Source of the DNA: Nitrospirota bacterium
GTDB lineage: Bacteria; Nitrospirota; UBA9217
Direction: 5' to 3'
Assembly (NCBI GenBank): GCA_049793155.1
Contig: JBARBN010000228.1
Location: forward strand, 14,644 to 78,643
DNA length: 64,000 bases
Positions 19,901 through 49,783 of this stretch are shown here, piece after piece. The notes under the pieces are model-generated. The model saw only the letters and a program-made list of their open reading frames with translations, had not been told where the DNA came from and made no database searches. Made by a program: the position numbers and the translations under genes. The number at the start of each line of letters is the position of its first letter. Position 1 is the stretch's first letter.

Positions 19901-22900
19901 CGGTCGTCAGAACGCTGCCGTCGGCAAGATATATACGCTTTCCCGGGGCATTGAGTGTGATGGTCCCCATCGGGGCCGCGAGGGTCACGCCCTTTTCCAC
20001 ATCGATTCCTGCCAGGCCCTCCACAGTCAGGCTTCCGCCCGCCGAATAGATGGGCACATCTGCAGTGATATCCGCATTCTGGATCGTGTGCTGCAGCGTC
20101 ACTTTGCCGTTCGAGTGAACCGTGTAATCGGAGTACAGATCCGGATAGAATTGGCTTCCATGCGTCGTATATGAATAATAATTGCCCGGATATATCCGGT
20201 CCGCATCCAGAACCAGGTTGCCCGTTGTGGCCAGTATTCCATTCTTCACTGTTCCGGGATTGCCGTCTTTGCCGCTGGTGAAATTGTTGTCGTACAATAC
20301 CTGGCTCAGGCGTATATCCCGGTCGGTCCGCAGCGTGACATCACGAAAACCGTCGATCTGAACGTCTCCGATCACATCGATAAAGCCGCCATGTTTAACG
20401 CCGCTCGAATCTGTCCATCCTCCGGAAAGCGTGAACGATCCCGCGGTCGGGGAAGTTGAATTCGTGAGCGCCGGTGGAGACACTTTGGATGTGTTCGTAA
20501 GAACTATCCAGGGCGCGCTCAACGCCACGTTGTTTCCGGAGCCCGTGATCTCCGGCGCATCCAGGGTCAGCTTCCGGCCTATCAAGGCGTTATTGATGTT
20601 GCTGCTGAAGATAAGCGAGTACGCGCTCCTGAACGTCAGGTCGTCGAATCCCGTTGTGTGGAGAGCCAGCTTAGTGACGTCCATGCCGCTGGTCGCGTCT
20701 GTTTTGGCGATCGCCAGACTGCCTCCGCCCAGCCCCTCCAGTTGCGCATGATTGGCATATACGGAGCCCAGCGGATTCAGGTCGCTCCCGTAACTCAGGG
20801 AAACACTGCCCGGATTACTTGCTGTTTTATAGGTGGTGATCTTCCCGTTAGACAAGACCGTATTCTGGACCACGTCCGATCCTGAGACATCTACGATCGC
20901 CGAACGATCAATCTCCAGGGAACCAAAAGCAGTCAGTGACACATTGCCGCCGGTCATTGACTGGTAGTTGACGTCGAAGCCGTTTGGCGTAGATGACGGA
21001 TCAGGACGGTTGTATCCGGCTGCGGTTATTTTCGCGCCATTGCCCAGCAGAAGATCGCCCTTCGTCGCACTGAGGCTGATGTTTCCGGCCGGCGCGTCCA
21101 ACATTCCTTGCACGGTCACATTCGGGCCGGACAGAGATATGGATCCTCCGGGCGATGTTTGTATAACCGCGCCGTCGGAGACCATAAGGTTCACAGAGCT
21201 GCGATCTACGTCCTTTAAGTTGCCGGCAAAATTGCTGTTGCCGCTCGTCAGAGTGCCGTCAAAAAGTTTTGCCGCGTTCGCGGTAAATGAAGAGGGCCCG
21301 GCCATATAGCTCATAGCATCGTCGAGACGCATGAGATCGGGCCTTCCGGGTACCATGCTTCCTGAGGCATCCTGACCCTCGATCAGCGCTTTCCCTGTCT
21401 GCCCGATAATCGGATTGTTCATTCTGGCCAGCGAGGGAGTGATCGTTGTGTTTTTATCGATGATGAGATCATTCTGACTGTTGAGTGTGATCCGCGTGAA
21501 ACCAGTATCATCGAACCGGTTTTCGGCAAGGGTGAACTTGTCCTTCATCTCAGCGGAGACTGAAGATTTCTGTGGATCTGAACTGGCGGCATCAAAACTG
21601 CTCCAGTCGTATGTTTGAGGGATTGATGAAGCCGGAGCAACAGTAATATTGGTCGAAGCAAGGGTAATGGCGCCTCCCTGGAGTTTGCCGTTCGGATCAG
21701 CCAGGGCATAACCGCGCAGATCCCCGTCCAGCTCAATGTTCGTCCCCTGGATGCTTAATGACCCGGCATTCCCTCCCGTTACCTTGCCCTTCTGGTCGAT
21801 GGAGTATCCGCCGCTCACATCCATCAGGGCGCCCGTTTGCACGAAGACGCCCGCCCCCTGGTCCGTTTCATCCTTCAGAGAGACGGACCCGCCGTTCGTT
21901 CGCCCGGAACCTGCAAAGGCATTACCGGTTGTCCCCGCCTGGCTATTATCTATCCGTTCTCCCGACACATCGAGAACGCTCTTCTTTCCTGCAATGATCC
22001 TCTCATCGAGCGGCTCATAGGAGGCGCCATTGGACGTTCCGTTGGCGTTAAGTTGACTGGTGTTGTTCTGCGCCGCGTATAAATTTATTTCACCGCCGTG
22101 AACCGTGATCGAGCCCTCGTGGTCGATCCGTCTTGCCGTCGCCGCAAAAGAACCACCCGGTTGCAGCACGAGGCCGGCATCGGCAGCCGTGTCAATGGTC
22201 AGGTCTGCCGTAAGGTTCACGGTGCCCAGCTTCGCATTGTTCAGGGTCGTGGCCGAGATCAGCGTGGGACCGGTCAGGGGATCGGAACCGATGGTAAGCT
22301 TATTATCGATGCTAAGCTGTTGAGGGTCTATTTGCGAAAGGACGGAAATCGACGTGGGGTTATTGAGCGTAGTGCTTCCGGAATTGCCTATTTTCAGCGT
22401 TCCCGCCCTTGGTGTTTCGATGCCCTGGGCCTTGGAAAGCATCAGCGCTTCCTCGTAATCCGCATCGGTACCATATGCAGTTCTCGTCGTCCAGGCATTC
22501 TGATAGGTGCCGCGCGTTACACTGCCGTTGAGCTGACCATCGAGAACGACCGAGGACGCCGTGAGCGAAAGCGTGCCGGCATCGCCGCCCTGGGCATAGC
22601 CTTTCACATAGGTCTTCAACGAGGAGGCGCCGCCGTAGTATATCCCTGAATAGGACTCCCGGATACCGAACCCGTCGTACGTTTTTTCGTAATTTCCGAG
22701 GAGCTTATTATACTGAATGTTGGCCGGGGCATTGCCGATGTCGTAGATCTGCGTGCCTGACAGCAGCTTCGTGGAATCAACAAGGCCGCTTTGATAGTTG
22801 ATCAAGCCGCCGGCTAAATTGAGCGCGGCCCCTTGCTTGATGATAATATCGCCGTTCGTCACATTCATGTCTATGTTTCCGGTTTGGGGTTGATAGACCC

Positions 22901-24392
22901 AATGGTCCGGTAATTGGTTCGTGGAATCGTGCCATAAGTACTTTCTTATATCCCCGCCGACGAGCCGCTCATACGCAGTCTTGTCCCGGGTCAGCAATGC
23001 CTGCGAAATATCTCCGATCGATGACCCCGAGGTCACGGAGGTTGTTATTTTTTCACCCTGCAAAACACCGTTCTTCTGATCGTAATAATCCCGAAGCTCG
23101 ACGCTGGTCAATTTGGCATCGGCAACCACCGCAACGGGGAGGTCCTTCATGACACCGCTTACGTCGATGCTGCTGCCCGATTCCATGTAGACCCGGTCGG
23201 TCGCCCTCAAGGTTACGTTCCCCGCCGGCGCAACAATGTTTCCCCTCAGCTCGATCTCATTCGCGCTGTTGGTCCCTCCCCTCATGTCATTGTTGTTGTT
23301 CTTGCTCAAACCTCCTATGAACACGACCGGCTGAATGTCGAAGGTATCGCTGATGGTGCGCGGCAGGCCGGTCACCGGGTCCAATGAAACATCGACCGGC
23401 AGCAGAATCATGCTGTTAACGCCTGTGGTGATCTTTTTCGCTGCCCTCAATTCCACCTGACCGTTCTTATTCTGGAATGCCGTCACGGCACGGATGACCC
23501 CCCACTGATCAATGTTGTTGCCGTGCATGCCGGCCACGCCGCCATCGGCGTATAATTTCCCGCCCTCCCGGTTCACGGCACGGCCGAAATCAGGATCGGT
23601 ACTCATGGGCGCGTTCAGGAAGTCATCATTGATCACGACATAATAGCCGGATCTCGCCGTGTCGCTCTCTTGCGGGGTCAGCAGCTGCACGTCCGTCCCG
23701 GCAACCAGACCGATCTGGCCTGCGGGCGCATTGATGGTGCCGCCATTTTCCACACGGGGGGCCATAAGGAATACAGTGCCGCCATTTGCAGTGATCTCTC
23801 CAAAATTCGAGACCGTAGCCTGCAGATCAAAACCCGCTCCTGATTGCTGGTAGTCCTCCGCCTTGAATTTCAATGCATTGTTTATGAAATCGCCATCATG
23901 GATATTCAAGGCCGAGGCCACCAGGCTATTGACGTTCACTATCGAGCCCTGCCCGAAGAGGATGCCGTTCTGATTAATGAGGTAGATCTTTCCGTCCGCC
24001 GTGAGCTTTCCAAAGATCAGGCTGGGGTCCCTGCTCCAGATCCGGTTCAGGGCGGACCAGTTTGCATTTCCCTGCTGATCGAACTTTGTCCAGGCATCAG
24101 CGCCGATATCGAAAGATGACCAATCGATGATGACGTTCGGCTGGGTCTGATGGACGACGAGCTGGTTCTGCGAAGTATTATTATCAACAGTGACGCCAGG
24201 TATGGTTGCTGTCGGTTGTTGCAGCACAGGCAATTGTGTCCGGGGAGGAGGCGCTACCGTTGATCCGTAAAAGCCGGGAATATTGACCTGACCGGCCAGG
24301 GCGTAATGGGGGAACAGGACCAGCACGCAACCGAGCAGTCGCATCATGACATGAAAAAAGCTGATTTTCATTGCTCCCCTCCTGTACCTCAT
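13998..24392 (-). CDS. Giant TpsA exoprotein of a two-partner secretion system (filamentous-hemagglutinin-like; 3464 aa)
   Basis: Signal peptide, then a TPS secretion domain: NVIIDWSSFDIG...ALNRIWS...GKIYLINQNGILFG. This is the FhaB/ShlA-type NPNL/NPNGI-like core. About 3100 aa of degenerate G/N/S/T-rich beta-helix-like repeats follow. The C-terminus is acidic (...DFVEDDNDKSKEE). The real start is probably MKISFF at 24371. Confidence 0.85.
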   Translation of the reverse strand: MRYRRGAMKISFFHVMMRLLGCVLVLFPHYALAGQVNIPGFYGSTVAPPPRTQLPVLQQPTATIPGVTVDNNTSQNQLVVHQTQPNVIIDWSSFDIGADAWTKFDQQGNANWSALNRIWSRDPSLIFGKLTADGKIYLINQNGILFGQGSIVNVNSLVASALNIHDGDFINNALKFKAEDYQQSGAGFDLQATVSNFGEITANGGTVFLMAPRVENGGTINAPAGQIGLVAGTDVQLLTPQESDTARSGYYVVINDDFLNAPMSTDPDFGRAVNREGGKLYADGGVAGMHGNNIDQWGVIRAVTAFQNKNGQVELRAAKKITTGVNSMILLPVDVSLDPVTGLPRTISDTFDIQPVVFIGGLSKNNNNDMRGGTNSANEIELRGNIVAPAGNVTLRATDRVYMESGSSIDVSGVMKDLPVAVVADAKLTSVELRDYYDQKNGVLQGEKITTSVTSGSSIGDISQALLTRDKTAYERLVGGDIRKYLWHDSTNQLPDHWVYQPQTGNIDMNVTNGDIIIKQGAALNLAGGLINYQSGLVDSTKLLSGTQIYDIGNAPANIQYNKLLGNYEKTYDGFGIRESYSGIYYGGASSLKTYVKGYAQGGDAGTLSLTASSVVLDGQLNGSVTRGTYQNAWTTRTAYGTDADYEEALMLSKAQGIETPRAGTLKIGNSGSTTLNNPTSISVLSQIDPQQLSIDNKLTIGSDPLTGPTLISATTLNNAKLGTVNLTADLTIDTAADAGLVLQPGGSFAATARRIDHEGSITVHGGEINLYAAQNNTSQLNANGTSNGASYEPLDERIIAGKKSVLDVSGERIDNSQAGTTGNAFAGSGRTNGGSVSLKDETDQGAGVFVQTGALMDVSGGYSIDQKGKVTGGNAGSLSIQGTNIELDGDLRGYALADPNGKLQGGAITLASTNITVAPASSIPQTYDWSSFDAASSDPQKSSVSAEMKDKFTLAENRFDDTGFTRITLNSQNDLIIDKNTTITPSLARMNNPIIGQTGKALIEGQDASGSMVPGRPDLMRLDDAMSYMAGPSSFTANAAKLFDGTLTSGNSNFAGNLKDVDRSSVNLMVSDGAVIQTSPGGSISLSGPNVTVQGMLDAPAGNISLSATKGDLLLGNGAKITAAGYNRPDPSSTPNGFDVNYQSMTGGNVSLTAFGSLEIDRSAIVDVSGSDVVQNTVLSNGKITTYKTASNPGSVSLSYGSDLNPLGSVYANHAQLEGLGGGSLAIAKTDATSGMDVTKLALHTTGFDDLTFRSAYSLIFSSNINNALIGRKLTLDAPEITGSGNNVALSAPWIVLTNTSKVSPPALTNSTSPTAGSFTLSGGWTDSSGVKHGGFIDVIGDVQIDGFRDVTLRTDRDIRLSQVLYDNNFTSGKDGNPGTVKNGILATTGNLVLDADRIYPGNYYSYTTHGSQFYPDLYSDYTVHSNGKVTLQHTIQNADITADVPIYSAGGSLTVEGLAGIDVEKGVTLAAPMGTITLNAPGKRIYLADGSVLTTAGSAEVMYGLIDPNNLWLLEDKSNPGINAGTTSRITQDSLPQKGITLNADEVVARGGSVIDVSGGGSIFGYKFQPGVEGSVDPLTKTGRYVVFKADSFPMPGTAVYLQGGGGLSAGMYTLLPLDAKNPQNARYAFLPGASIIEAQSGPSLPEQGALSKDGYPLVVGYSAVADTPIQGTRPQVFTVRTAAEVLHAEGSYVKPEPILSGDAGIIKISGNTMILDGKLKAAAGQGFQGGKISLSAANIIVQTASTSPLGNYFNFDTSFDDLLHPELQKLKGGLTMSADGLTGFREVDLGDAGSTNSITITSTAEAPTVLNASIISLAAKNQITIGKSSSLQAVTDQNTNSGEGVITLTTPGTLDIGSNAILHATHAVSLDANNVATMKGSLQSDNGALTLKSSAIFLDDGTRTDTGLHVTQNMWTNNFTGFQDITLVSNSGNNAGIQFRENFNLSAGNSLTLDASRIANVSQSPIAVTLEAPTINFKNSGTASTLPPDASMGASIFTAATSANAGGIGTINIGDGDVLFANFNRINLNSRNDLTLNGKGSLSAGNADLSISAARVVAVSTAGTNKHKDGTATTSLTPADFAVYAGANYHNDQNDPNPTNKITIAGNGNAAGPSSTQGGTLEFWGASIDQGGVIQADGGSIKLSAMGSGPADGVMLRSGSKILAQGTVDAPGGQVLLKSVNGGIVLDSSSLIDVSAGSQGDAGLISLQSPIGGVLINGSLMAAAHGGAGGSFILDTSQLADIDMTRLIGTLSAGGFTESVDMRARKGNIDIASTDKLTAHLVKLTEDDPSKDANGVLLTDSNGNPLYGNINVAGRIEVSQGGSVELYAMNDLNIQSGGSIRAVSSTSGSLDANVLLSSSAASININGKIDVSGSDGTAPTGVVYLRAQCNLANNDLNATIASGAIAGASAVYAEAVRSYDISSSTPDLALPTGISDATTFYTNYMNNTNRFGTGINNFHLLPGIELVSNGNIDLNAAWDATTSRFGGEPGVLTIRAAGDLNINNNLADSPSGYNITSAPSGQNSWGFDLVAGADLSSADHMAVNNSGAGNLSFANNVIVYTETAPIRIASGKDTIIGVADQPPGYMLPSYMMNYSLASFTGSIRGNVGRDLIVAGAIQTATGDIDINIGRDLNLLVGNDTNNAGAGAIRTTGRLSAAAAAANWGDNPFDPMVIALPGSIQSDIYQTYYWRYDKGGNINLSVGRQAGKLNSSGQWVVADKTDAWDYFSPIEVSFPLAGNGGSATLAYYGVFSADYVNGTAGLATMGGGKLAVRTGGDFLAQAGTFGTGDLTIYSGGDIKGRFLNHGSAGEPGRAEIHAMGNFGAFDKQAQIELFNSRMNVTAQGEMQIGAVLNPTLASDKIDESRNYFVQCTYMPETSIKLKAGTDVTIAGNSPYYANDPTGYAKNYERVLPATVNVDAGGDIMLRNDFTLASFSKGDLSLDAGADVIGQVLDTAHGTYRSATILMSDISTQNWYGLFYIGNPDSPEKSGQWISKRTSNLHGLYDPTDNTWSFSEPLHAGDDQAITVHADEDIKGLNMKFSKKAEVTAGRDIVDITYEGQNITSNDVAMIRAGRDISIQYVKASSQNSAQGGLIQGGPGVFLVQAAGSIDLGSLSDGIQEIGNGNNPALGAEKSSLVVLSGYGFDKPASDIQAFFNSIRTAGDTYAGLMADGKLDEASQLLQTTRTKTIAPLLDAPTGAGDINMTSSQISTSNAASDIFVIANGNLNLGKTALPSASVVNTTTGITTANGGAINIFAVKDINVQESRVMTFFSRQDMVDPTKLYGDITVWSDQGNINAGRGSRTAVNASPPKRKQVPGLTGVYETVFTPPAVGSGMRALTYGDNPPVPGNVHLFAPTGVIDAGEAGIAGGQITLAALKVNNASNITFSAGSIGVPQSSEGTASLGTLAGTGITQNTQMNTDASGIGVSRAQASQMVEDIIAKWLDVKVVDFVEDDNDKSKEE

Positions 24393-25993
24393 CAGAACAC
24401 CGCCTTCAGTTTAAAATACAGCCTCAGATCATTGCTCTTTGTCCGGTCCGTGGCGTCCAGGGCCTTGGCCCCGTCCAGCTCGTATTCCAGGTTCTTCGCC
24501 ATCGAGCCCCGCAAGCCCACCCCGGCTCCTTCGAGCTTGACGCTGCCCGCCTGGCCAGGAAGGGGTTCTTGAGTAGTCAGCGCGGCAATGTCGTAGAAGA
24601 GAAAGGGGATCATCTGCAGCCACTTCCCGGTCCTGGTTTGTTCGAAAGGATTGGGGAAAGACACTTCCACCGTGCCATGCACGGCCTCATCGCCTGAAGC
24701 CTCGCTCTCCTTGTATCCCCGCACGCTTTCCATGCCACCCGCGACAAACTGCTCATTGTTGATAAGCGGCTGATCGGATGACTGCCCGTCCACCTTCACG
24801 AGCAGGTTCATCCCTCGGGGCAGCTTCTGGTTGCGCTGGATGGACGCTGTTTCGTAAACGTAGTCCGCCCTCCCCTTGAAGCGTTTGAGCTCGAACTGTC
24901 TCTCATGGGAACCCATGCCGCGGAAGGACATGTTCACTCCCGCGTTGAACTGTGTCATCCCTCCCCACTCATCCGGCAGGGACGCGTTGTAGGAAAAAGA
25001 AAGCGGCGTATAAGAGATCGGCGTATGGGTCGTCTCACCGCCTGCCGTGGTGAAACCGATGGCTTGATCGAATTGCTTGTAATCAATGCCCAGGGTCAGG
25101 TTATGTGAATATAGCTGGTACGGTGTCAGTGCTGTTACATATCGAGTGCCGAATATCTTTCCCTTTCCGATCACCTTGAAGTCTTCGCCAAATGCCGTAG
25201 TACTGTCCGACCAGATACCATACAGCGCCAGCTGATCGTCCTTCTGCCATGGCGCGGGCAGGACGTAGGATGCGCCCAGGACCTCAACCTCCTTCGTCTT
25301 TCGGGGAGCGGTCTGGTACTGAAAGGATAGGGAGTGCTCCGCTTGCCAGAGATTATCGTAACGGGCCATCCCGTTCAATCGCAATGCACTCGTGTCGTAG
25401 CTGGCCCTGTTGTTCAATTCCAGATACCCGTGAAAAGGAAGCCGGTCTTCCACCTTCAACTCAACATCGATGGTCCCTACTACCTTGCCCGGCGTCATTA
25501 CGGGTTCGACCTTGATGTCCTGGCTTCTGTTCAAGCGGCCGATCTCCTTCTGGACCTGCGGCAGATACAGGATCGAACCCGGGGTGAATGACGGCAGGTC
25601 CTTCATCACTTTTTCCATCGTGAAATACCGGTTGCCCGTGACCTTTACCCGGCCTATCCGGCTCTCGATGACCTGCAGCCGGACAACGCCCTCCTGCAGG
25701 GTTTGCTCGGGGATGTTCACCATAACAGCCGGATAACCGGCTTCGTGATAAAGTTTTTCGAGGACATCGCGGGCCTTTTCCACATCAACCGCTGTTTTTC
25801 CGGCGCCGGTCAACAACAAGACCGCTGCCTGCAGTTTATCTTCCGGCATGAGGGTATTTCCTGTGATCTCAAAGGTCTTGATCTCGAATCCTGATGTCCC
25901 GCCCTCCTCGGCGAGGCACACCCTGATCAGTGTTCCCTGCAGGGTCATGATCACGACCAGGAGACAGATGAGGCGCCTGCTGATATTCTCCAC
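24392..25993 (-). CDS. TpsB outer-membrane transporter (ShlB/FhaC family, Omp85 superfamily)
   Basis: Signal peptide, two POTRA-like regions and a 16-strand barrel region ending ...LRLYFKLKAVF (C-terminal Phe). Its stop overlaps the tpsA start. Confidence 0.8.
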   Translation of the reverse strand: MENISRRLICLLVVIMTLQGTLIRVCLAEEGGTSGFEIKTFEITGNTLMPEDKLQAAVLLLTGAGKTAVDVEKARDVLEKLYHEAGYPAVMVNIPEQTLQEGVVRLQVIESRIGRVKVTGNRYFTMEKVMKDLPSFTPGSILYLPQVQKEIGRLNRSQDIKVEPVMTPGKVVGTIDVELKVEDRLPFHGYLELNNRASYDTSALRLNGMARYDNLWQAEHSLSFQYQTAPRKTKEVEVLGASYVLPAPWQKDDQLALYGIWSDSTTAFGEDFKVIGKGKIFGTRYVTALTPYQLYSHNLTLGIDYKQFDQAIGFTTAGGETTHTPISYTPLSFSYNASLPDEWGGMTQFNAGVNMSFRGMGSHERQFELKRFKGRADYVYETASIQRNQKLPRGMNLLVKVDGQSSDQPLINNEQFVAGGMESVRGYKESEASGDEAVHGTVEVSFPNPFEQTRTGKWLQMIPFLFYDIAALTTQEPLPGQAGSVKLEGAGVGLRGSMAKNLEYELDGAKALDATDRTKSNDLRLYFKLKAVF

Positions 25994-26130
25994 CTGTCGC
26001 TACGCTCCAGTTCCGCTTTTGATCGTCCCCGCTTCCGCAACCTTGTCGATTGACGTATCGCAGGCCGGGAGCAGGAACACGACGGGTACGGCGGTATGCA
26101 GCCACGCACTGATCCGTTTTCTATATTGCA

Positions 26131-26325
26131 TCATGATGAAATTCCTTCTGCCCGCCTTTTTTCGTTTCTTGTCTCTCCCGACATAATGATCGCGGCATCG
26201 TTGATTTCTTCGTACTTTTCCACCCTCCCCAGGCTGCCCTGGCTGAAGTTGATCTTGACATATCCGCTGAATTCCCCTTCCACAAGCATCCTGATCACTT
26301 CGCTGAGACTTTTCATCCTGTCCAT
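26131..26325 (-). CDS. Small conserved protein S1 (64 aa), paralog of the ORF at 32339..32473
   Basis: MDRMKSLSEVIRMLVEGEFSGYVKINFSQGSLGRVEKYEEI... The corresponding 44-aa stretch of S1 (about 55% identical) aligns with MEKIKKMMEVIKALMDKKFTGYIRINFTRGSVERIEKFEEILKK. The shared core is EVI..L....F.GY..INF..GS..R.EK.EEI. It lies between the NusG-like gene and tpsB. Confidence 0.6.
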   Translation of the reverse strand: MDRMKSLSEVIRMLVEGEFSGYVKINFSQGSLGRVEKYEEINDAAIIMSGETRNEKRRAEGISS

Positions 26326-26363: not shown

Positions 26364-26867
26364 TTATGCCGCTTCAACATCGTCAGCGTAAATTTTTACG
26401 CCGACGCTTCTTCCCAGAAGCTCTATGCTGACGAGCAGAATGTGATGATCTTCTTTGCTCGCCAGTATCCCCTCTGCGCCCCTGAATACCCCGTTTTTTA
26501 CCCGCACCCGGGCGCCCTGTTTCAGATGCGGATAGACATCAATGTTTTCCCGGGCATCAAGGAGTATCTTCAGCGCGCGTATCTCTTCGGAAGCCACTGG
26601 TGTCGGATGTCCGGGCTCAAGGGATATGAACGTCACGGCGCCCCGGGTTTTCAAAACTCTTAGAAATTCCTCCGGACCCGGCAACAGGGAAACAAAGAGA
26701 TAGCCGGGGAACAGGGGAACGTCCACACGTTTTTTTCTGTCTTTCCATTGATTCAATTTTGTTACTGAAGGCAGAAAGGTTTCGATGCCCTTGCCTTGCA
26801 GTTCGCCCGAGACCACGAATTCATGTCGTGACTTCACGTGTACCGCATACCAGTTGGCGCTCATCAT
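26364..26867 (-). CDS. NusG-family specialised paralog (UpxY/LoaP/RfaH-like transcription antiterminator)
   Basis: NGN domain WYAVHVKSRHEFVV...FPGYLFV. C-terminal KOW-like GARVRVKNGVFRGAEGILA. Much shorter than housekeeping NusG and placed at the head of a long operon. Start taken at MMSANWYAV; the upstream 53-codon in-frame extension looks non-coding. Confidence 0.7.
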   Translation of the reverse strand: MMSANWYAVHVKSRHEFVVSGELQGKGIETFLPSVTKLNQWKDRKKRVDVPLFPGYLFVSLLPGPEEFLRVLKTRGAVTFISLEPGHPTPVASEEIRALKILLDARENIDVYPHLKQGARVRVKNGVFRGAEGILASKEDHHILLVSIELLGRSVGVKIYADDVEAA

Positions 26868-27035
26868 GGTCTTGCACCTAGGGAATGATTTGAGATTTGT
26901 ACAGACAAAGGGTGATACCGGAACGGACCATGAGGACTCGTTATGGGCTTTCCGGTCGTTGATGCTTTTTGAGCACCAACTCAGCAAAGTACCCGCATAC
27001 TCTTGCGGTGTGCGAAGCGATACCATACTATAGTC

Positions 27036-27089
27036 TTGTTAAAACTTGATGACTGTATTGTTACAATTTGATAAAGAATTTAATAACCG
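27036..27089 (-). promoter_or_regulatory. Direct-repeat array A (5 heptamers at 11-bp spacing) upstream of the NusG-like/tps operon
   Basis: TTGTTAAaac TTGATGActgt aTTGTTACaat TTGATAAagaa TTTAATA. It lies about 180 nt upstream of the NusG-like start. Confidence 0.5.
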
Positions 27090-27203: not shown

Positions 27204-28091
27204 CTAATCTGCCTTCAGTAAGGGCTTTGCATCAATGACCTTTCCCACGGTCACATCGCAAAGCAGCGTCTCACCGCCGAAGGAATTCCCGAAGTCGACG
27301 GTTATGCCCTTGTCGTCTACGTCGGTGATGTGTCCTACCATTTCGCCAGCCCGGACGAGCGCTCCTTTGCGGGCCTCAATGTCCACTTTGTAATCCTGGC
27401 CATCATCTCTGATGCGTCCGGGGCCGAAAGGCGTCTCGATGACGGCGCCTGGCGTCGCGGAAAACCGGATCGTCACTTCCTGGTCTGAAATGGACTCGAC
27501 CCTGCCGGGGAAATCGGGATCATAGGAATATGCTTGTCCCACTTCCGGAGATTGCTTGGCCCTGTACTCATAATCTCCCCTCGGCATTTTCATTTCCTTG
27601 GGCCGGGTGCGGACCCGGGTCAGGTGCGCGATATATTTTGGTGCTTCCTGATCCGGTACATCTTCCGCCTTGATCTCCGCCGTGCGACTATCGCCTTCCT
27701 TCATGCTGACAATGGCAAACGCGAGCTGATGCGAAATTTCCTCTTCCATTGACCGTTGCACGTAAGGCGTCGACTGCACTTGCACGGCATCCGCGGCGCT
27801 GACCGCCTCAATTGAAAGGGGAACAGCCTCATCCTTCTGCAAATAGGCGTTCGACTTTCGTTGGATCTCGGCAACGATGTCCGTTGCAGCCACAACCTCG
27901 CCCGACCGGAGTCGACACAAATAATGGACGGATGCCGTATCGCCGGGCTTTATCTCCTTCGCCTGCGCACGGTCAGTTGTGGGTTCAGGCTGCAAGGTCT
28001 GATGCGTTCCCGGGGTAGCACACCCCGTGATTGCCAGCAGGCAAACGGACACCTGAATAATTGTCTGAATTTCTTTCCCGTTAAACTTCAT
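27204..28091 (-). CDS. FKBP-type peptidyl-prolyl isomerase lipoprotein (two FKBP/SlyD-like segments)
   Basis: Lipobox LLAITGCATP. IKPGDTASVHYLCRLRSGEVVAATD resembles the FKBP GDxVxVHYxGxLxDG motif. The C-terminal GHITDVDDKGITVDFGNSFGGETL is SlyD-like. Confidence 0.5.
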   Translation of the reverse strand: MKFNGKEIQTIIQVSVCLLAITGCATPGTHQTLQPEPTTDRAQAKEIKPGDTASVHYLCRLRSGEVVAATDIVAEIQRKSNAYLQKDEAVPLSIEAVSAADAVQVQSTPYVQRSMEEEISHQLAFAIVSMKEGDSRTAEIKAEDVPDQEAPKYIAHLTRVRTRPKEMKMPRGDYEYRAKQSPEVGQAYSYDPDFPGRVESISDQEVTIRFSATPGAVIETPFGPGRIRDDGQDYKVDIEARKGALVRAGEMVGHITDVDDKGITVDFGNSFGGETLLCDVTVGKVIDAKPLLKAD

Positions 28092-28355: not shown

Positions 28356-29615
28356 TTAGTTGCAGTTTGCATTGTGATATTTCGTGTTTACTACGAAGCC
28401 GCCGAAATTGCTGTTTTTGATACGATGCATGTTGCACGAAGCTGACCAGTTGGGATTAACCGAAGTGATTGTGCTGGGCTGGCTTGCATACGTGCACAGG
28501 TCTTGCATGATGGGGGTCGCGGATACGGTGGTGTTCGCATACAGATTCTGGATCGTGGTGAATGGCCAGCTGTAGTCATCAACATTGGCCGTGATCGGTG
28601 AGATGCCGTCGAGTGTGAGGCGGACCGTATTGGGGAAGGTGGTGCCGAGAACCTGGTCCGCATCAGCATAACCGATGGCGCCGGCGCCGGTCCAGGTGCC
28701 GCTGCCGTTGACGCACCTCATCAGATCAGACGAACCGTCGTTAAAATAGAAATGCGCGCCGGAGCCGCCGGTGACAGCGTTCTGGATCATCCCTGAAGGC
28801 CGCATAAAGGAATCCATGGTTGCATGGGTGCCGGAACCCGCGTGGCGGTAGCAGACATTAACAGGCATAGAGGACATGCTGACAGCCTGCAGGTCCGCCC
28901 AGTTCTGAATAACGCCCTGGAATATCATCCTCGCTTCTGCGGTGCTGATGTTGCTTATCGTGGTGGTCCCATCCGCCAGTTTCACGGTGTTGTTCGCAAA
29001 GAACGCGAAGGGGACGGCAAGCGGACGGCAGTAAGCTGTCGTGTTTGAGGTGAGCACAAAAGGATTCGTCTGAAAATTGCGGACCGTCTGGACCCCGCCT
29101 AAGGGGCCAAGCAAAAGGCCGCTGGATTTCTGCACAAAGTCTCCCACCTGGACATCGGATGCGCCGATGGTCACGGGCTGGCAGGTCAAAAGTGTGGTGC
29201 TTCCGGGGTTGTCCAGCATCGGACGATAGTTAGCCCCGTTTGAAACTTCGCACGTCGTGTCACGGGACGGGTTGGTCGTGTTGCCATCCGCGGCAAGAGG
29301 ACCGTCATAGGAGGCCTTGGACGAAACGCGCCAATTGACGGTGTTTGATCCACAGGTGGCCTGCTGGATAAAGTGCTTGCCGTCAGATGATGAGGCGGAA
29401 CCGCCCAGGGTGCATCCTGCAGCCGTCAGATAGTGCGGGATCTCGCTCTTGAAAAAAGTAAACTCAGCTGATGCTCCATAGACGTTCAAGTCACCGGTAG
29501 GCGCGACCGGCGTGCCGGTTCCGGTTGAATATGTTGTCGCTGCCGAAGCGGCGCCCGCGAACGCGATGAGGGCTGCACCGGCAATGACGGAGGTAAAGAT
29601 ATTCTTGAGTTTCAT
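28356..29615 (-). CDS. Secreted protein with a divergent PstS-like (phosphate-binding periplasmic protein) fold
   Basis: Signal peptide. YRHAGSGTHATMDSFM parallels VHRSDGSGTTAIFTDYL in the bona fide PstS of this window. NVYGASAEF and IGYADADQ resemble PBP-fold motifs. Otherwise unknown. Confidence 0.35.
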   Translation of the reverse strand: MKLKNIFTSVIAGAALIAFAGAASAATTYSTGTGTPVAPTGDLNVYGASAEFTFFKSEIPHYLTAAGCTLGGSASSSDGKHFIQQATCGSNTVNWRVSSKASYDGPLAADGNTTNPSRDTTCEVSNGANYRPMLDNPGSTTLLTCQPVTIGASDVQVGDFVQKSSGLLLGPLGGVQTVRNFQTNPFVLTSNTTAYCRPLAVPFAFFANNTVKLADGTTTISNISTAEARMIFQGVIQNWADLQAVSMSSMPVNVCYRHAGSGTHATMDSFMRPSGMIQNAVTGGSGAHFYFNDGSSDLMRCVNGSGTWTGAGAIGYADADQVLGTTFPNTVRLTLDGISPITANVDDYSWPFTTIQNLYANTTVSATPIMQDLCTYASQPSTITSVNPNWSASCNMHRIKNSNFGGFVVNTKYHNANCN

Positions 29616-29699: not shown

Positions 29700-30449
29700 T
29701 TAGGCAACTGTCTTCCTACGGAGACCGACGAGACCCATCAGACCCGAGCCGAAGAGGTAGATAGCAGCCGGGATCGGCGTAGCTTGCGCGACCAGTTGCG
29801 TGGAGCCGTCAGCGAAGGTACGAATCGTAGCGATGCTCGTGCCTTGTGCTCCGGAACTCGGATCAGAGCCGTAGTAATAGAGAACCTGGTCAACATAGCT
29901 CGAAGTAGCAAGCGCCCCCAGATTCTTCTCGGCATCGCCCGATGCAAGATAATTGCCCATCGTTCCGATCATGGTTCCGCCGCCATTCATCATGTTCCAG
30001 TAGGAATACGTACCGGTCTGTGCAACCGTTGCATTGTTGCCGACTGCGGCGCCACGGTAAGTATCCAGAGTGCTACCTGCAGCTGGACTGAATGACCCCC
30101 AGAACGCATAGGGGTTGATGTTACCGGCGTTTGCCGGACCGCTGGCATAGGCAGAACCATTGCCGCCATTCGCGGTATTGGACAGGATGAAGTAGGCGAC
30201 ATTGGTATTGGCCAATGTCGCGCCTGACCCTAACTTGCTAAGGCTGAAGGTGTCCGTATTGAAGGCCACATTGGTGGTAAGAGGTGCGCTCGCTGAAAAA
30301 GCACCGAGGTCTGTTGCGTACTCCGTGCCGGCGCCGGTCCCGCTATATACCACGCGGATCAGATCGCCTTCGTCGAAAGCGGCCATTGCCTGACCGGCGA
30401 AACTGACCATGAGCATCATGGCTACAAAAAGCAAAATAATTTTTTTCAT
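29700..30449 (-). CDS. Secreted protein with a VPLPA-type PEP-CTERM exosortase sorting signal
   Basis: Signal peptide MKKIILLFVAMMLMVSFAGQAMA. The C-terminus ...ATPIPAAIYLFGSGLMGLVGLRRKTVA has a P-x-P-A motif, a TM helix and a basic cluster. Confidence 0.65.
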   Translation of the reverse strand: MKKIILLFVAMMLMVSFAGQAMAAFDEGDLIRVVYSGTGAGTEYATDLGAFSASAPLTTNVAFNTDTFSLSKLGSGATLANTNVAYFILSNTANGGNGSAYASGPANAGNINPYAFWGSFSPAAGSTLDTYRGAAVGNNATVAQTGTYSYWNMMNGGGTMIGTMGNYLASGDAEKNLGALATSSYVDQVLYYYGSDPSSGAQGTSIATIRTFADGSTQLVAQATPIPAAIYLFGSGLMGLVGLRRKTVA

Positions 30450-30845
30450 TGTTTTGTTTCCTCCTGAGTTTTTTAAAATCAATCGAAATCGTTCCTACCC
30501 AGCGTTTCGTGCGTGTATATCTGGAGACGCTGCGTATGCTTTTTACCCTCAGGCGACCCGGCCATCCACCTCTGGTGGACCCGCTGGTTTTCCGTCACCC
30601 GGTTGCCCGGGCTTTGGCTTTATTCTGAAGGCCGGATGCTGACTTGCGCAGACATCCTACCGAGTTGTATACATCATCTATGCTGTCTCTATCTCCCCCT
30701 CCTTTCTTTTATGGATGTATTGAGTGGGCCTGTCAATTTGAACTGTAATAAATCATTACGCGGCAGGCTCCCGACCCGGGCTTTCTGTTACCTTATTCAG
30801 GTCAGCTAAGTACCCTGGTACTAAATAAAAGACGATAAATAAAAA

Positions 30846-30892
30846 AAGCCCGAATCCTGATAAGAACTCACTCTTATCCATGATTCGGGCTT
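30846..30892 (-). terminator. Intrinsic terminator (hairpin plus U7) downstream of gene 31056..32228; part of repeat copy 1
   Basis: AAGCCCGAATC-ctgataagaactcactcttatccat-GATTCGGGCTT. In the minus direction it is followed by UUUUUUUAUUUAUCGUCUUUUAUUU. The loop carries its own inverted repeat (gataagaa/cttatc). Confidence 0.6.
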
Positions 30893-30940
30893 TCTGGTGC
30901 GCGACTGAATTCTGTCGGTCAGCAAAGGACCCTGATGATC
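30846..30940 (-). repeat. Leader/terminator repeat element, copy 1 (about 95 nt)
   Basis: Hairpin plus TTTCTGGT(A/G)C plus the CGGTCAGCAAAGGACCCTGA(T/G)GAT box. About 85% identical to copy 2 at 32237..32335. Confidence 0.6.
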
Positions 30941-31055: not shown

Positions 31056-32228
31056 TTACTGAACAAACGATCGTGCTCTCCTGTCCAGGTCGGCGAGGTA
31101 ATTCGCCGTGAATATATACTCTGAGAGATACATTTTGTTCTTCCTCTGAACCGCCGAAGACCGGCTGTTTATGTATACCTGCAGTGCTTCGATGAAATTA
31201 TTTTCATTGACGACACGGATGAGATCGATCGGCGGGGCAACGACGATCGGATAGTCAAGGATTTCCCCGCCTGCAAGGGTGACCAGCCTCGCGTCCCAGG
31301 TCCCTTCACTCGGGAGGACCGTAATGACGATGTCTTTTTCGCGTGCTTCTTTCGACAACAGCGTGGCGTCGGACAGGGCGATCCCGGTTGAATGCGTTCC
31401 ATCCGACTGTACGTCTATCCGGATCGTGACCGGGGTTTTCCCGTCGGAGATCGCGATCGCAGGCTCCTGCCTGCATCGTTCGCCTTCGTTAGGCCCGAAC
31501 AGAGCGACAAACGAACTCAGGTCCTGCTCCCCCTTGTATTTTTTGAACCGCTGCAGTACGCTTTTTTCCTCACGCGTGAGGAGTGTTATCTTCGCCGCTT
31601 GAACCTGCCTGCCGACATTCCCCGGCGACCGCACCCCTGCTGTCATGGCAACGGGCGCATCAGTTCCCCTTATTCCATCCGGAGCAGCCGCGGAGTTATT
31701 TTTCGGGACTATTACAGTTGGGACCGTATTGTCTGTTCCGTTCCGGGAATTAATATTCTCGAGTCCGACCGTTGGTTCATCCGTTGGTCCGCCTGGCAGC
31801 GTGTTAGCATCAGACTCGGAGGGCCATGCGGTCGTGCTCCTGACACTCGCGGTTACATGATAGATGCCTTTGGTCGCATTCTCCGCCCACGCCTCCTCGA
31901 AATTTACAAAGATCTGGAGAAGAGGATCCGCGACCGGCCGGAAAATGCTGAGGAACAGTGTTCCCGGCACGTTGTCCTTTATCTGCCGCAATTCTCCCCC
32001 GCCGACCGTGATGTAAGGATGCGCCAGCATGGTGGAATCGTAGTCGATCTCTATATCCAGGGCCTGCACGCCGATGACATTTTCTCCTGTCATCACGAAG
32101 CTGCCCTGCCCATTCGGCTGGATGCTCATCGTGACGGCATCGGCAAATGAAAGAGCCGGGCAGATCACTACAAGCAGGAGACCCAGCAAAGGCAAATGTA
32201 GTGTTTTATAGATGATTTGTTTAATCAT
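31056..32228 (-). CDS. Secreted hypothetical protein
   Basis: Start at MIKQIIYKTLHLPLLGLLLVVICPALSFA (signal peptide). No recognisable domain. A structured leader lies immediately upstream. Confidence 0.5.
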   Translation of the reverse strand: MIKQIIYKTLHLPLLGLLLVVICPALSFADAVTMSIQPNGQGSFVMTGENVIGVQALDIEIDYDSTMLAHPYITVGGGELRQIKDNVPGTLFLSIFRPVADPLLQIFVNFEEAWAENATKGIYHVTASVRSTTAWPSESDANTLPGGPTDEPTVGLENINSRNGTDNTVPTVIVPKNNSAAAPDGIRGTDAPVAMTAGVRSPGNVGRQVQAAKITLLTREEKSVLQRFKKYKGEQDLSSFVALFGPNEGERCRQEPAIAISDGKTPVTIRIDVQSDGTHSTGIALSDATLLSKEAREKDIVITVLPSEGTWDARLVTLAGGEILDYPIVVAPPIDLIRVVNENNFIEALQVYINSRSSAVQRKNKMYLSEYIFTANYLADLDRRARSFVQ

Positions 32229-32236
32229 AATAACGC

Positions 32237-32285
32237 AAAAGCCCGAATCGGGATAAGAATATGATCTTATCTCTGATTCGGGCTT
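32237..32285 (-). terminator. Terminator-like hairpin in the 5' leader immediately before the start codon of 31056..32228 (candidate attenuator); part of repeat copy 2
   Basis: AAAGCCCGAATC-gggataagaatatgatcttatctct-GATTCGGGCTTT. In the minus direction it is followed by UUUGCGUUAUU and then the ATG. Confidence 0.5.
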
Positions 32286-32335
32286 TCTGGTACCCTGGCG
32301 ATATAATCCGCCGGTCAGCAAAGGACCCTGAGGAT
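32237..32335 (-). repeat. Leader/terminator repeat element, copy 2 (about 95 nt)
   Basis: Same modules as copy 1. A partial third copy (box plus a different hairpin) lies at 44441..44514. A box-only match TCAGCAAAGTACCC lies at 26977..26990. Confidence 0.6.
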
Positions 32336-32338
32336 ATG

Positions 32339-32473
32339 CTACTTTTTTAGAATTTCTTCAAATTTCTCGATCCGCTCGACGCTTCCGCGGGTGAAATTGA
32401 TCCTGATGTATCCTGTGAATTTTTTGTCCATAAGAGCTTTAATTACTTCCATCATTTTTTTTATTTTTTCCAT
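32339..32473 (-). CDS. Small conserved protein S2 (44 aa), paralog of 26131..26325; absent from the ORF track because it is under 60 aa
   Basis: Hand translation of the reverse complement: ATG GAA AAA ATA AAA AAA ATG ATG GAA GTA ATT AAA GCT CTT ATG GAC AAA AAA TTC ACA GGA TAC ATC AGG ATC AAT TTC ACC CGC GGA AGC GTC GAG CGG ATC GAG AAA TTT GAA GAA ATT CTA AAA AAG TAG. Confidence 0.55.
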   Translation of the reverse strand: MEKIKKMMEVIKALMDKKFTGYIRINFTRGSVERIEKFEEILKK

Positions 32474-32556: not shown

Positions 32557-32600
32557 TGTTACATTTTGATGACCATTTAATTAAAGTTCCGTGAAATGAT
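32557..32600 (-). promoter_or_regulatory. Direct-repeat array B upstream of small protein S2
   Basis: aaTTGTTACAttt TGATGACcatt TAATTAAagtt CCGTGAAA. It lies about 85 nt upstream of the S2 start. A TATAAA/TATGTT -10-like element lies beyond it in the minus direction. Confidence 0.45.
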
Positions 32601-32793
32601 CATTGGCAATTGCATTTTTCATATTCGAGTGACCAACAGCGCATTTCCTTAATATTCTGTTCATAAGTGCGATAATATTTTGATATCCTTGTTACTCTTT
32701 CCTTTGACCGCATAGGTACGATACTGTTCATTCCATCTGATATTTTCCCTGGCGCTCTTAACTAATGACTCATCTTTTACCACATATATATTT

Positions 32794-32832
32794 CATGGTG
32801 ATGAACGTTCGATGAAAGTTCAGTTAATTTAT
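32794..32832 (-). promoter_or_regulatory. Direct-repeat array X2 (TGATGA-type)
   Basis: CATGGTGATGAacgtTCGATGAaagtTCAGTTAATTTATC. Confidence 0.4.
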
Positions 32833-35351: not shown

Positions 35352-35395
35352 ATTGTTACAAGGTTATGAAGGACAGGTTAATTTATAATTAATTT
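35352..35395 (-). promoter_or_regulatory. Direct-repeat array C upstream of 34902..35216
   Basis: gaTTGTTACAagg TTATGAAGgac aGGTTAATTtat aATTAATTT. Almost identical in architecture to array D. Confidence 0.5.
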
Positions 35396-35412: not shown

Positions 35413-36456
35413 CTAAATATTTTCCGGAGCATTGATAACTGCTTTTCGCCGATAGCGGATCATGTAAATCAACAGCAGTAGAGGGAAGAGGTATTGCCCG
35501 ACTGCGATGAGGGTCAGGTCCATTGTTCTGGCGGATGTGTAATTAAAGTACGCCAGCAAAACATTGTCAATCCGGTGAAAAAGATGGATGACAAAAAGGA
35601 GCCCCAACCCCGCGGCGAGCCCCTTGATTTTCATTGCCCACGGTACTGAGCTAACAGCAAGGACCAGCGACGTAAAGATGACAATGCTGAAGGTTTCATA
35701 GTAGACGGTGGTTTCCTGCGCGAGGCCTACATGGTGATCGAAGAGAGAAAAACCCAGGACCATAAACCAATCCAGGAACCGGATATACCCGTGATGGACC
35801 TTCATCCATACAAGAAATAGACCGCTGGATATCAGCACAAAGCGTACAAAAAACCACGCTGCTTTCATGGGCATGCCCTTGTTCGACTCTTCCCGGTCGA
35901 TCCATTTCAGCCACAGGATGCAGGCCAGCAGGACAAATAACATAGTGAATACCTGGCCCAAATACACATGAAAAACCTCAAAGAGCCCCCGGTCATACCG
36001 ACTTACCATGAAGGTGAGTGCCAGCCGGAACAGGTTGCCCATATAGAGTAAGGGGATTCCCATTGCAAGACCGGTTGTCTTCTGTCGCGCCGTAGCGGGA
36101 TGAAAGATAACGAAGCTCAGGAAAAGGCCCGTTGTGAAGAGCGGAGTGCACTCGGGGATGATCTGGAACGCCAATGCGCCTTCCGATACCGTGTCGTTGA
36201 CAGTCGATGCGGGAATGCCGAAAGCATTCAGGACCAGGACCAGGGTCGCCGCAACGTGTTCGTTTATCGGCTTTGTGAAAGACGGCGGCAATGCGTTAAT
36301 GATCGCATAGATCGCAATGCAGGAAAGGGCGAACGCAGCGGCAAAGCGAAAACTACGCGACCGGATCATATTCGATATTAAAGATCCGAGAGAATCGCCT
36401 TTTTTTTCGGCGGCCTTCTGTTTCTCATGTCGATGCTTTGATTTCTGTTTTGCCAT
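35413..36456 (-). CDS. Exosortase (EpsH/Xrt family transpeptidase)
   Basis: About 8 TM helices. A conserved Cys sits in IIPECTPLFTTGLFLSF (exosortase E-C-[ST]-G/P-like motif) and Arg residues in FRLALTFMVSRYDR. It shares the window with five proteins carrying matching C-terminal sorting tails. Its start is 3 nt from the upstream stop. Confidence 0.6.
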   Translation of the reverse strand: MAKQKSKHRHEKQKAAEKKGDSLGSLISNMIRSRSFRFAAAFALSCIAIYAIINALPPSFTKPINEHVAATLVLVLNAFGIPASTVNDTVSEGALAFQIIPECTPLFTTGLFLSFVIFHPATARQKTTGLAMGIPLLYMGNLFRLALTFMVSRYDRGLFEVFHVYLGQVFTMLFVLLACILWLKWIDREESNKGMPMKAAWFFVRFVLISSGLFLVWMKVHHGYIRFLDWFMVLGFSLFDHHVGLAQETTVYYETFSIVIFTSLVLAVSSVPWAMKIKGLAAGLGLLFVIHLFHRIDNVLLAYFNYTSARTMDLTLIAVGQYLFPLLLLIYMIRYRRKAVINAPENI

Positions 36457-37977: not shown

Positions 37978-38022
37978 TATCAGAATATTGTTACAGATTT
38001 ATGAAGGGCAGGTTAATTTATG
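37978..38022 (-). promoter_or_regulatory. Direct-repeat array D upstream of the phosphoesterase-exosortase operon
   Basis: taTTGTTACAgat TTATGAAGggc aGGTTAATTtat gATTAATTC. It lies about 120 nt upstream of the phosphoesterase start. Confidence 0.5.
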
Positions 38023-44552: not shown

Positions 44553-44595
44553 CATTACAAGATGATGAAGGATCCGTTAATTTGCCGTTAAATTA
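44553..44595 (-). promoter_or_regulatory. Direct-repeat array E upstream of the VPLPA-CTERM gene 43684..44376
   Basis: cATTACAAgatgaTGAAGGatcc GTTAATTtgcc GTTAAATT. A TATGAT -10-like element follows in the minus direction. Confidence 0.45.
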
Positions 44596-49629: not shown

Positions 49630-49783
49630 TTTTTCGTCTCCATCATTTCAGGCCTCTGATGGTACTCCTTGTTTATTACAAGAGTATGACGATATAATTA
49701 TTTTTTTGTTACAGCGGAAACTTGAAGTGATATTGAAACGGGATAAATCCACTTTGAAAACCGTTTGTCTTTGCTGAAAAAAA

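Follow-up and report, generated by a model that had tools for sequence, protein, structure and literature searches.

In the hut operon of Bacillus subtilis and in operons controlled by PyrR, the regulator (HutP or PyrR) is encoded by the first open reading frame (ORF) and acts on a terminator directly behind its own gene. Small proteins are also known that act on two-component systems as connectors or feedback elements, such as PmrD and the membrane peptide MgrB. Here we describe two paralogous small-protein genes, S1 and S2, together with an RNA element referred to below as the switch, in a 64,000-nucleotide stretch of DNA (the window) from a Nitrospirota bacterium (contig JBARBN010000228.1 of assembly GCA_049793155.1, forward-strand positions 14,644 to 78,643). 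The S2-type gene resembles hutP and pyrR in its setting, being the first ORF after the promoter and preceding an antiterminator/terminator and then the structural genes, and S2 would therefore be made whatever the terminator decides. The elements on which this comparison turns are the following.

26131..26325, minus strand: S1 gene, 64 amino acids; S1-type genes encode a conserved 41-residue core and a variable tail
32339..32473, minus strand: S2 gene, 44 amino acids; S2-type genes encode the core, terminating in ...EKFEEILKK-stop
32237..32328, minus strand: RNA switch; box GGGUCCUUUGCUGA at 32328-32315, then a variable hairpin, then ACCAGAAAGCCC at 32291-32280, and last a long hairpin with a U-run
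31056..32228, minus strand: secreted protein of 390 amino acids, first gene after S2 and the switch; signal peptide, no Pfam or NCBIfam family

The S2 locus runs from promoter repeats through S2 and the RNA box with its terminator hairpin to the secreted protein, with the box beginning 11 nt after the S2 stop codon and the U-run ending 8 nt before the next ATG. An earlier note made from the sequence alone had placed a leader box and hairpin directly after S2, as is indeed seen in the sequence, and had set the start of the secreted protein at 32228, where an ATG followed by a signal peptide opens the 390-residue frame. The ORF listed by the program (31056-32321, minus strand; 421 amino acids with a TTG start) overruns the terminator hairpin, and the real start is the ATG at 32228.

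S1 and S2 share 20 of 41 identical residues (49%) and 36 of 41 positive positions (88%) over residues 1-41, in a gapless BLASTP alignment with an E value of 2e-16. This bears out the similarity proposed in the earlier note and lowers its figure, which was about 55% over a 44-residue stretch; the core motif GY-x-x-INF-x-x-GS-x-x-R-x-EK-x-EEI is present in both proteins exactly as quoted there (GYVKINFSQGSLGRVEKYEEI and GYIRINFTRGSVERIEKFEEI). A hidden Markov model (HMM) of the family, run on the six-frame translation of the 64 kb, recovered S1 (E 2e-34) and S2 (E 1e-22) and no third copy, the next match having an E value of 3. At the DNA level, the two cores are 64% identical, with synonymous sites saturated (proportion of synonymous differences, pS, 0.76) and a nonsynonymous proportion (pN) of 0.27, and a repeat finder connected the S1 and S2 loci through short regulatory motifs only, not through coding sequence or flanks. 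These values supply the comparison of substitution rates between the copies that the note had proposed, and they agree with its statement that the flanks are dissimilar in DNA and the amino acid core is kept. As judged from these alignments, S1 and S2 represent an old paralogy at the protein level, not a recent DNA duplication. Both proteins have entries in NCBI: S2 is a 100% match to MGC1456608.1 (WA946_15595) and S1 to MGC1456602.1 (WA946_15565), each named 'hypothetical protein' and both from one 81.6-kb contig of a Nitrospirota metagenome-assembled genome, so that the description of S2 as unannotated does not stand.

By codon statistics, S1 and S2 are true protein-coding genes under purifying selection, because third codon positions vary most (entropies at positions 1/2/3 of 0.81/0.59/1.43 in 101 distinct genes from the fetched loci), because median pairwise ratios of nonsynonymous to synonymous substitution (dN/dS) are low (0.14 for S1-type and 0.25 for S2-type genes), and because hundreds of homologs conserve the frame. 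A word-index search returned 35 homologs of S1 (57-87 amino acids) and 31 of S2 (mostly 44-54 amino acids), and S2 orthologs are 64-98% identical. A profile search of 1.84 billion representatives gave 290 clusters at 50% identity with E <= 1e-3, 167 of these with E <= 1e-10, and a profile built from Geobacteraceae members gave 1268 clusters at 90% identity, none of which carries a Pfam domain. Well-placed GAGG-like Shine-Dalgarno sequences precede 28 of 31 S1-type genes, S1 itself having GAGG 6 nt upstream of its start. The earlier note had treated the pair as a conserved paralogous small-protein family rather than noise and had proposed a homology or HMM search for conservation; the homologs, the dN/dS values and a gene order kept over dozens of species uphold it. 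The opposite possibility, also raised there, was a duplicated noncoding segment or, more generally, chance ORFs. It is refuted by the codon-position pattern, the dN/dS values, the hundreds of homologs and the Shine-Dalgarno sequences of the S1-type genes, the codon statistics ruling out the duplicated segment in particular, and we give it practically no credence.

The conserved part of the family comprises about 41 residues, with the consensus MDRMKxLxExIxxLxxxxF[ST]GYIKINFSQGSLGRVEKFEEI and invariant or near-invariant positions L14, F19, G21, I25, N26, F27, G30, R34, E36, K37, E39 and E40. S2-type proteins stop two to a few residues past this core, and S1-type proteins continue into a variable, often lysine-rich tail. 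Compared with its closest homolog (locus L091), S1 itself lacks 2 nt of an A-rich run in the tail (window 26150-26165, minus strand), which changes the C terminus from ...NEKKSGRKEFHHDAL in L091 (the homologs' tail being ...KEFHHDAL) to ...NEKRRAEGISS in the window; this is either a real lineage difference in a little-constrained tail or a homopolymer assembly error.

We then considered the RNA that follows S2. The 32237..32328 stretch folds with a z score of -4.46, and RNAalifold applied to 42 copies predicts a helix, P1, in which the GGGUMCUUUGCUGA box pairs with CAGAAAGCCC through 10 pairs interrupted by two bulges. Two sequences carry a compensatory CUG/CAG to CCG/CGG change in P1. The enclosed hairpin is variable and exists in 58 different versions. 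Of 62 copies, 60 are more stable than their shuffled counterparts, the mean energies being -6.6 versus -2.1 kcal/mol. The 3' strand of P1 is the base of the terminator stem, a strong, long hairpin with a 5' arm starting AAAGCCC and a U-run behind it; because both structures use this AAAGCCC strand, P1 and the terminator are predicted to be mutually exclusive. On this folding evidence the conserved element is an antiterminator/terminator RNA switch, which could be a riboswitch or a protein-binding attenuator. No Rfam family matched the box or hairpin, even at E <= 1, and a simple terminator scanner missed the switch hairpins, their loops and stems lying beyond its limits; direct folding reveals them. 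The fetched loci hold 62 distinct copies, 61 of them on the gene strand, and metagenome contigs hold 98; most precede secreted-protein genes. The window has five matches to the switch pattern, against 0.2 expected, and those outside the S2 locus are as follows.

30802..30932, minus strand: two tandem switch copies with boxes at 30932-30919 and 30815-30802, extending over 30932-~30841 and 30815-~30760; no S gene upstream
26920..26994, minus strand: switch variant with box at 26994-26981, hairpin, GACCGGAAAGCCC and an alternative hairpin without a U-run, upstream of a NusG paralog and S1
44513-~44440, minus strand: switch copy of the same module

Four other distinct S1-type loci (e.g., L025, L034, L035 and L037) also have the variant found ahead of S1, at 308-460 nt upstream of their S1-type gene.

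A scan of one genome per GTDB species gave 129 S loci. With a strict pattern, a switch lies within 450 nt downstream on the same strand of 45 of 65 distinct S2-type genes, for a background of 0.017 per 450 nt. The median distance from S2-type stop codon to switch is 35 nt, with 25 of the 45 at 50 nt or less and a minimum of 5 nt, and several S2-type genes scored as lacking a switch carry visible variants. The link to a terminator element suggested in the earlier note therefore holds, and strongly, for S2-type genes. We also approached the question from the RNA side, by an exact pattern scan of metagenome contigs that yielded 87 distinct switches with enough upstream sequence. An S-family ORF was present within 700 nt upstream on the same strand in 38 of these (44%), with a median stop-to-switch distance of 15 nt, and 49 of the 87 lacked a leader S ORF. 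Most of the switches without an S ORF precede genes for signal-peptide proteins, including 'GDLIRVVY' proteins and metallophosphatases with a twin-arginine translocation (TAT) signal, and some precede glycosyltransferase-like genes. From these counts the S2-type gene is by far the commonest upstream neighbor of the switch, yet the switch works without a leader ORF. Where the S2 stop codon and the switch are distant, the spacer consists of short tandem or inverted repeats (e.g., GTGTCAAAGT, CCATTAC and CACTTAACAC units), as at positions 5345-5480 of L011, after the S2 stop codon in L058 and L059, and in L078, L079 and L073.

The layout known from HutP and PyrR is thus found for S2 in the window, for 45 of 65 S2-type genes and for 38 of 87 switches, and S1-type genes do not have it. 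The likeness is one of arrangement: S2 has 44 residues versus about 148 for HutP, with no relationship in sequence or fold, the S-linked RNA is a bulged helix and the HutP target consists of UAG repeats, and an S gene in cis is lacking for over half of the switches. By gene context, we would tentatively file the S gene as a leader-encoded small regulator beside an attenuator.

A short ORF that ends near the 5' strand of an antiterminator helix competing with an intrinsic terminator also recalls trpL and tnaC, and translation of S2 might itself decide between antiterminator and terminator, as in trp/tna attenuation. The close spacing of stop codon and box (at most 50 nt in 25 of 45 genes and as little as 5 nt, with the median of 15 nt in the RNA-first sample) is what such a cis-acting ORF would show, and S2-type genes have an often poor, less canonical Shine-Dalgarno sequence (10/29) and a start position that shifts among homologs, with the C terminus ...EKFEEILKK and the stop codon fixed. 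Against this, selection acts on the whole 41-residue core across phyla (dN/dS 0.14-0.25), the fold is confidently predicted, the paralog S1 is conserved away from terminators and without a downstream switch, and S has no run of regulatory codons. Furthermore, spacings reach 300 nt and are filled with unrelated repeats, and the switches that lack a leader ORF include two more in the window. We therefore regard a cis-acting leader ORF as improbable. In its pure form, an attenuator leader peptide that works by translation alone and is free in sequence, the idea was rejected on the core selection, the predicted fold and the switch-less paralog.

The S proteins themselves have the character of small soluble domains. 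AlphaFold2 with the family alignment gave residues 1-40 a predicted local distance difference test (pLDDT) score above 90 and a disordered tail, the predicted fold consisting of an amphipathic N-terminal helix (residues 3-16) and a beta-hairpin with strands 21-28 and 31-39. In the hairpin, Y22, K24, N26, R34 and E36 alternate with hydrophobic residues and should point away from the helix. S2 has a net charge of +5. By inspection, S1 and S2 lack signal peptides, hydrophobic segments and cysteines, and both are predicted to be cytoplasmic, translated paralogs of an approximately 41-residue domain. A secreted or membrane small protein, or the precursor of a ribosomally synthesized and post-translationally modified peptide, was rejected for want of a hydrophobic stretch or cysteine in S1 and S2; the radical SAM/SPASM gene at 47080-48228 is about 15 kb away and outside the conserved synteny.

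No Pfam or NCBIfam family matched S1 or S2, and neither a sequence search of PDB with the family profile (noise only, E about 1) nor a fold comparison with PDB gave a match, in keeping with the earlier note, which had recognized no family. DUF2292 (PF10055, YezD-like) was the first candidate, being similar in size, in its helix-plus-hairpin look and in a ...G-x-[IV]-x-x-[IV]-EK-x-E... motif. S1 and S2 do not match it even at E <= 1, and of 149 S-family members scanned, a single one (P0192) did, over positions 3-33 of the 37-position profile, with 15.1 bits against a cut-off of 22 and an E value of 0.017, which is about what chance would give, so that membership was rejected. Two further candidates were rejected: DUF2196 (PF09962, YwbE-like), to which 5 of 112 S-family members match weakly and locally around G-x-V-G-R-V (best E 0.053, below the gathering threshold), and an Hfq/Sm1 likeness (GRVEKFEEI versus GQIESFDQF), to which hhalign assigned a probability of 0.2%. 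Literature on DUF2292 and on PEP-CTERM proteins with riboswitches and cyclic di-GMP (c-di-GMP) held nothing on an S protein.

Taken together, the linkage and the protein features suggest, as our leading but tentative reading, to which we give rather less than even weight, that S proteins may be small cytoplasmic trans-acting regulators of the attenuator, in a HutP-like arrangement. They would be made whenever the Pho-like promoters described below fire, probably under phosphate limitation, and would bind the switch RNA, or the complex transcribing it, so that S binding would set the amount of read-through into the secreted-protein genes. S1, at the head of the tps operon, would then be another copy, expressed differently and directed at the same switches, and possibly a partner of S2. 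A trans-acting factor is favored over an obligatory cis ORF because 49 of 87 switches lack a leader ORF, and the bulged strands of P1 hardly vary, which points to their being read by a factor. The directional linkage of S2 to the switch, the basic character of S2 and the lysine-rich tails of S1-type proteins support the same reading.

Several observations weigh against such a regulator. S1-type genes have a switch downstream in 1 of 38 cases and upstream in 4 of 38, and no sequence or fold likeness to an RNA- or DNA-binding domain, a helix-turn-helix or a known antiterminator family was found for S. A small-molecule ligand could account just as well for the constancy of the switch, with S uninvolved, and all of the functional evidence is gene neighborhood. 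Furthermore, the surroundings of S1-type genes point toward export. The S1-type stop codon overlaps or abuts the start of an FKBP-like lipoprotein gene in most genomes (-3 to -25 nt; ATGA in the window), and S2-type/S1-type tandems without a switch stand directly before a type II secretion system (T2SS) operon in L003/L023 (one contig) and L018. The tandem genes are 24-30 nt apart (L003 7836-8234, L018 5843-6189, L023 5836-6234), and the T2SS operon that follows in L003/L023 encodes GspC, PagL, GspD, E, F and G. In-frame fusions of S1 to the FKBP-like lipoprotein likewise count against the regulator, occurring in L025 (5992-7062, P0090) and L035 (4546-5643, P0108), with the signal peptide and lipobox in mid-protein; they may reflect loss of the stop codon, with initiation occurring internally, or else an S1 anchored in the membrane.

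These features, together with the confinement of the family to an exported-protein island with two-partner secretion (TPS) and T2SS genes adjacent, would suit an export-linked cytoplasmic factor, serving in chaperoning, targeting or holding of the nascent lipoprotein, TpsA or PEP-CTERM cargo, or as a partner of the secretion machinery. S has no signal peptide, however, and its putative clients fold outside the cytoplasm. In addition, 200-700 nt of regulatory RNA separate the S2-type gene from the next gene, unlike a chaperone-client layout, the fusions may be mere lost stop codons with internal initiation, and no likeness to known secretion chaperones was found. We judge an export role unlikely, although it is the strongest of the competing explanations. 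The earlier note had proposed a small regulatory or chaperone-like factor, which remains a reasonable, if provisional, reading; the family, the selection, the synteny and the terminator link behind it are real, and its NusG link and its claim of a common position for the two genes, taken up below, did not hold.

S loci were found in Nitrospirota/Thermodesulfovibrionia, Syntrophales/Smithella, Syntrophobacteraceae, Geobacteraceae, Desulfobacterales and a few others, and isolates that carry S include Geomesophilobacter sediminis Red875, Geobacter argillaceus ATCC BAA-1139 and Desulfosarcina cetonica JCM 12296. In tblastn comparisons with the window proteins and in tables of called genes, one order recurs over dozens of species in Nitrospirota and Desulfobacterota: an S2-type gene, a leader of 200-700 nt with the RNA switch and often a c-di-GMP riboswitch, and a secreted 'GDLIRVVY' protein of about 250 amino acids with a PEP-CTERM-like end, followed by a PstS-like protein of about 420 amino acids, an S1-type gene, the FKBP-like lipoprotein, TpsB and a giant TpsA with TPS and DUF3739 domains. 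Genes for type II secretion and genes of the TonB/ExbD type are often found nearby as well. In agreement with the earlier note, S genes adjoin secreted-protein genes, and this synteny is conserved across species; an ortholog of the 31056..32228 protein follows an S2-type gene and switch in L088.

The S genes of the window also share a promoter type. The direct-repeat arrays consist of CTGTCAT/TGTAAC-like heptamers with an 11-bp period, ending 10 nt before a -10-like hexamer, and they resemble the Escherichia coli Pho box, also in their placement relative to the -10 element. The features concerned are listed here.

32558..32595, minus strand: S2 promoter element, GGTCAT-N5-TGTAAC, 10 nt, TATAAA; repeat family D1, with a second copy at 32791-32827
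27038..27086, minus strand: promoter element of the NusG/S1/tpsBA unit; repeat D7, matching the Pho-box-like pattern
53623-58079, minus strand: canonical pstS-pstC-pstA-pstB-phoU operon

The Pho-box-like pattern has 25 matches in the window, versus 11.1 +/- 3.3 in shuffles. Its coherent matches are restricted to minus-strand intergenic regions, namely those ahead of pstS, a phosphoesterase gene, S2, the NusG/S1 unit, the lipoprotein gene, the PEP-CTERM leader and the gene for an LTD/VPLPA-CTERM protein. The promoters of S2, the NusG/S1 unit, pstS and the phosphoesterase gene, among others, have a TGTMAY-N5-TGTAAC-N10-(-10) architecture in common. In other S loci, 24 of 63 S2-type and 10 of 34 S1-type genes have the double repeat some 100-110 nt ahead of them, for a background of 0.015. 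The pstS promoter of the window shares its architecture with the promoters of the two S genes, from which we infer that S1 and S2 are members of a phosphate-limitation regulon. The whole window looks like a single phosphate-starvation regulon comprising phosphatases, a nuclease-like protein, PstS paralogs, the TPS system and exosortase cargo, as far as its gene content and promoters indicate; a purple acid phosphatase and a 5'-nucleotidase-type giant protein are also encoded. Pho-box-like direct repeats are common to some dozen intergenic promoters, that of pstSCAB-phoU among them; besides those near S1 and S2, the minus-strand sites are at 58132-58149, 37990-38007, 44554-44571, 35355-35372, 49675-49692, 53279-53296 and 59516-59533. 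Translation of pstS in fact starts at the ATG at 58079, which AAGGAGG precedes, and not at the first in-frame ATG (58125) of the listed ORF.

As first products of promoters with pstS-like repeats, S proteins might instead act at the promoter, by binding the direct, partly palindromic repeats, or bind a response regulator or kinase and feed back on the phosphate response in the manner of PmrD or MgrB. Like these, they would be made from promoters apparently dependent on a regulator of the OmpR/PhoB type. Inverted repeats of the form GTAAC-N7/8-GTTAC overlap the -10 region of some promoters, the island in L004-L006 includes, upstream of S1, a pair of genes for an OmpR-type regulator and a kinase, and the basic S2 and the lysine-rich S1-type tails are compatible with such contacts. 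No helix-turn-helix or other DNA-binding signature was found, there is no homology to PmrD or MgrB and S is predicted to be soluble, unlike the membrane peptide MgrB, and the tight directional spacing between S2 stop codon and switch is left unexplained. We consider a promoter-level regulator or two-component connector doubtful, ranking it below an export role and a little above a cis-acting leader ORF.

The S1 locus of the window has an order of its own: promoter repeats, RNA box, NusG paralog, S1, a 44-amino-acid lipoprotein remnant and tpsB-tpsA. The earlier note had placed both S genes in the same relative position, with a structured leader after S1; S1 has the box and the NusG paralog before it, and there is no structured leader between S1 and tpsB. 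The genes from S2 to tpsA, apart from those given above, are listed below.

29700..30449, minus strand: 'GDLIRVVY' secreted protein, 249 amino acids, PEP-CTERM-like C terminus; follows an S2-type gene in most genomes
28356..29615, minus strand: PstS-like periplasmic binding protein, 419 amino acids; PF12849 and TIGR02136 below cut-offs, synteny conserved
27204..28091, minus strand: FKBP-like lipoprotein, 295 amino acids; weak NF011676 match, directly after the S1-type gene in most genomes
26364..26867, minus strand: UpxY-family NusG paralog, 167 amino acids (MMSANWY start); NF033644 at 125.8 bits versus a cut-off of 100, directly upstream of S1
26000..26134, minus strand: 44-amino-acid lipobox (LLPAC) ORF, sequence MMQYRKRISAWLHTAVPVVFLLPAC..., whose ATG overlaps the S1 stop codon (ATGA)
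24392-25993, minus strand: tpsB, Pfam ShlB and POTRA_2; two-partner secretion pair with tpsA, downstream of S1
13998-24392, minus strand: tpsA, 3464 amino acids; TPS and DUF3739 in orthologs, synteny conserved

The window is a rearranged island, with the full lipoprotein gene upstream and the NusG paralog between it and S1, and homologous loci have a full lipoprotein gene of 275-333 amino acids after the S1-type gene. From its sequence, the 26000..26134 ORF appears to be the decayed N terminus of the FKBP-like lipoprotein gene; it is conserved in L091 and partly deleted in L092. A weak hairpin with a T-run (26371-26359) lies between the NusG paralog and S1.

The window order of box, UpxY-family gene and S1 recalls the UpxY-UpxZ pairs of Bacteroides capsule loci, where a small gene likewise comes right after a UpxY-family gene, and S might accordingly be thought of as a UpxZ-like partner of the NusG paralog, with the RNA box as the loading site of the UpxY-family antiterminator. 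By tblastn, a NusG paralog lies within 6 kb of an S gene in 2 of 91 loci (the window and L030), and gene tables show the arrangement in the two closest relatives, L091 and L092, as well. Since it is confined to these four, the NusG association is a lineage-specific insertion in one Nitrospirota sub-lineage and not a family trait, which sets aside the co-localization with a NusG paralog noted earlier. S and the switch are spread far wider, S is far smaller than UpxZ and has no similarity to it, and UpxZ-like membership was rejected, consistent adjacency to UpxY genes being absent. A UpxZ-like role is the least credible of the functional alternatives, and we hold it to be very improbable.

Two further features concern the exported proteins of the island.

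30549..30628, minus strand: c-di-GMP-I riboswitch, located in the PEP-CTERM-type gene's leader; RF01051 at 53.9 bits (gathering score 35)
35413-36456, minus strand: exosortase H (XrtH), TIGR04177 at 90 bits versus a cut-off of 86

The riboswitch lies downstream of the two tandem switch copies. Of 11 other loci, 7 have one in the corresponding position, and some of these are scored as the c-di-GMP-I-UAU variant. PEP-CTERM- or VPLPA-CTERM-like ends are seen on the proteins at 29700-30449, 43684-44376 and 49833-50411.

What is new here is an S family without a curated model, structure or paper, and a switch absent from Rfam. Small proteins frequently escape notice or keep the label 'hypothetical', and this family is abundant in sediment and soil anaerobes and strongly conserved. 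The island has two adjacent S-headed operons, in which Pho-type promoters, an attenuator RNA and a c-di-GMP riboswitch are combined with exosortase cargo and a giant TPS protein. More speculatively than the trans-acting role itself, and at roughly a one-in-several level of belief, S could be a new class of nucleic-acid-binding protein of about 40 residues which, alone or as an S1/S2 pair, reads an undescribed switch (GGGUMCUUUGCUGA-hairpin-ACCAGAAAGCCC-terminator) within a three-layer control (Pho-type promoters, switch and c-di-GMP riboswitch) of a secreted-matrix/TPS/exosortase island in Nitrospirota and Desulfobacterota. The RNA switch may be a more tractable discovery than the S protein. 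If S does not read the attenuator, the RNA would be a candidate riboswitch and the protein a candidate accessory of export or signaling; if it does, S would be an antitermination protein of a new and very small type, and the new RNA motif would gain a function.

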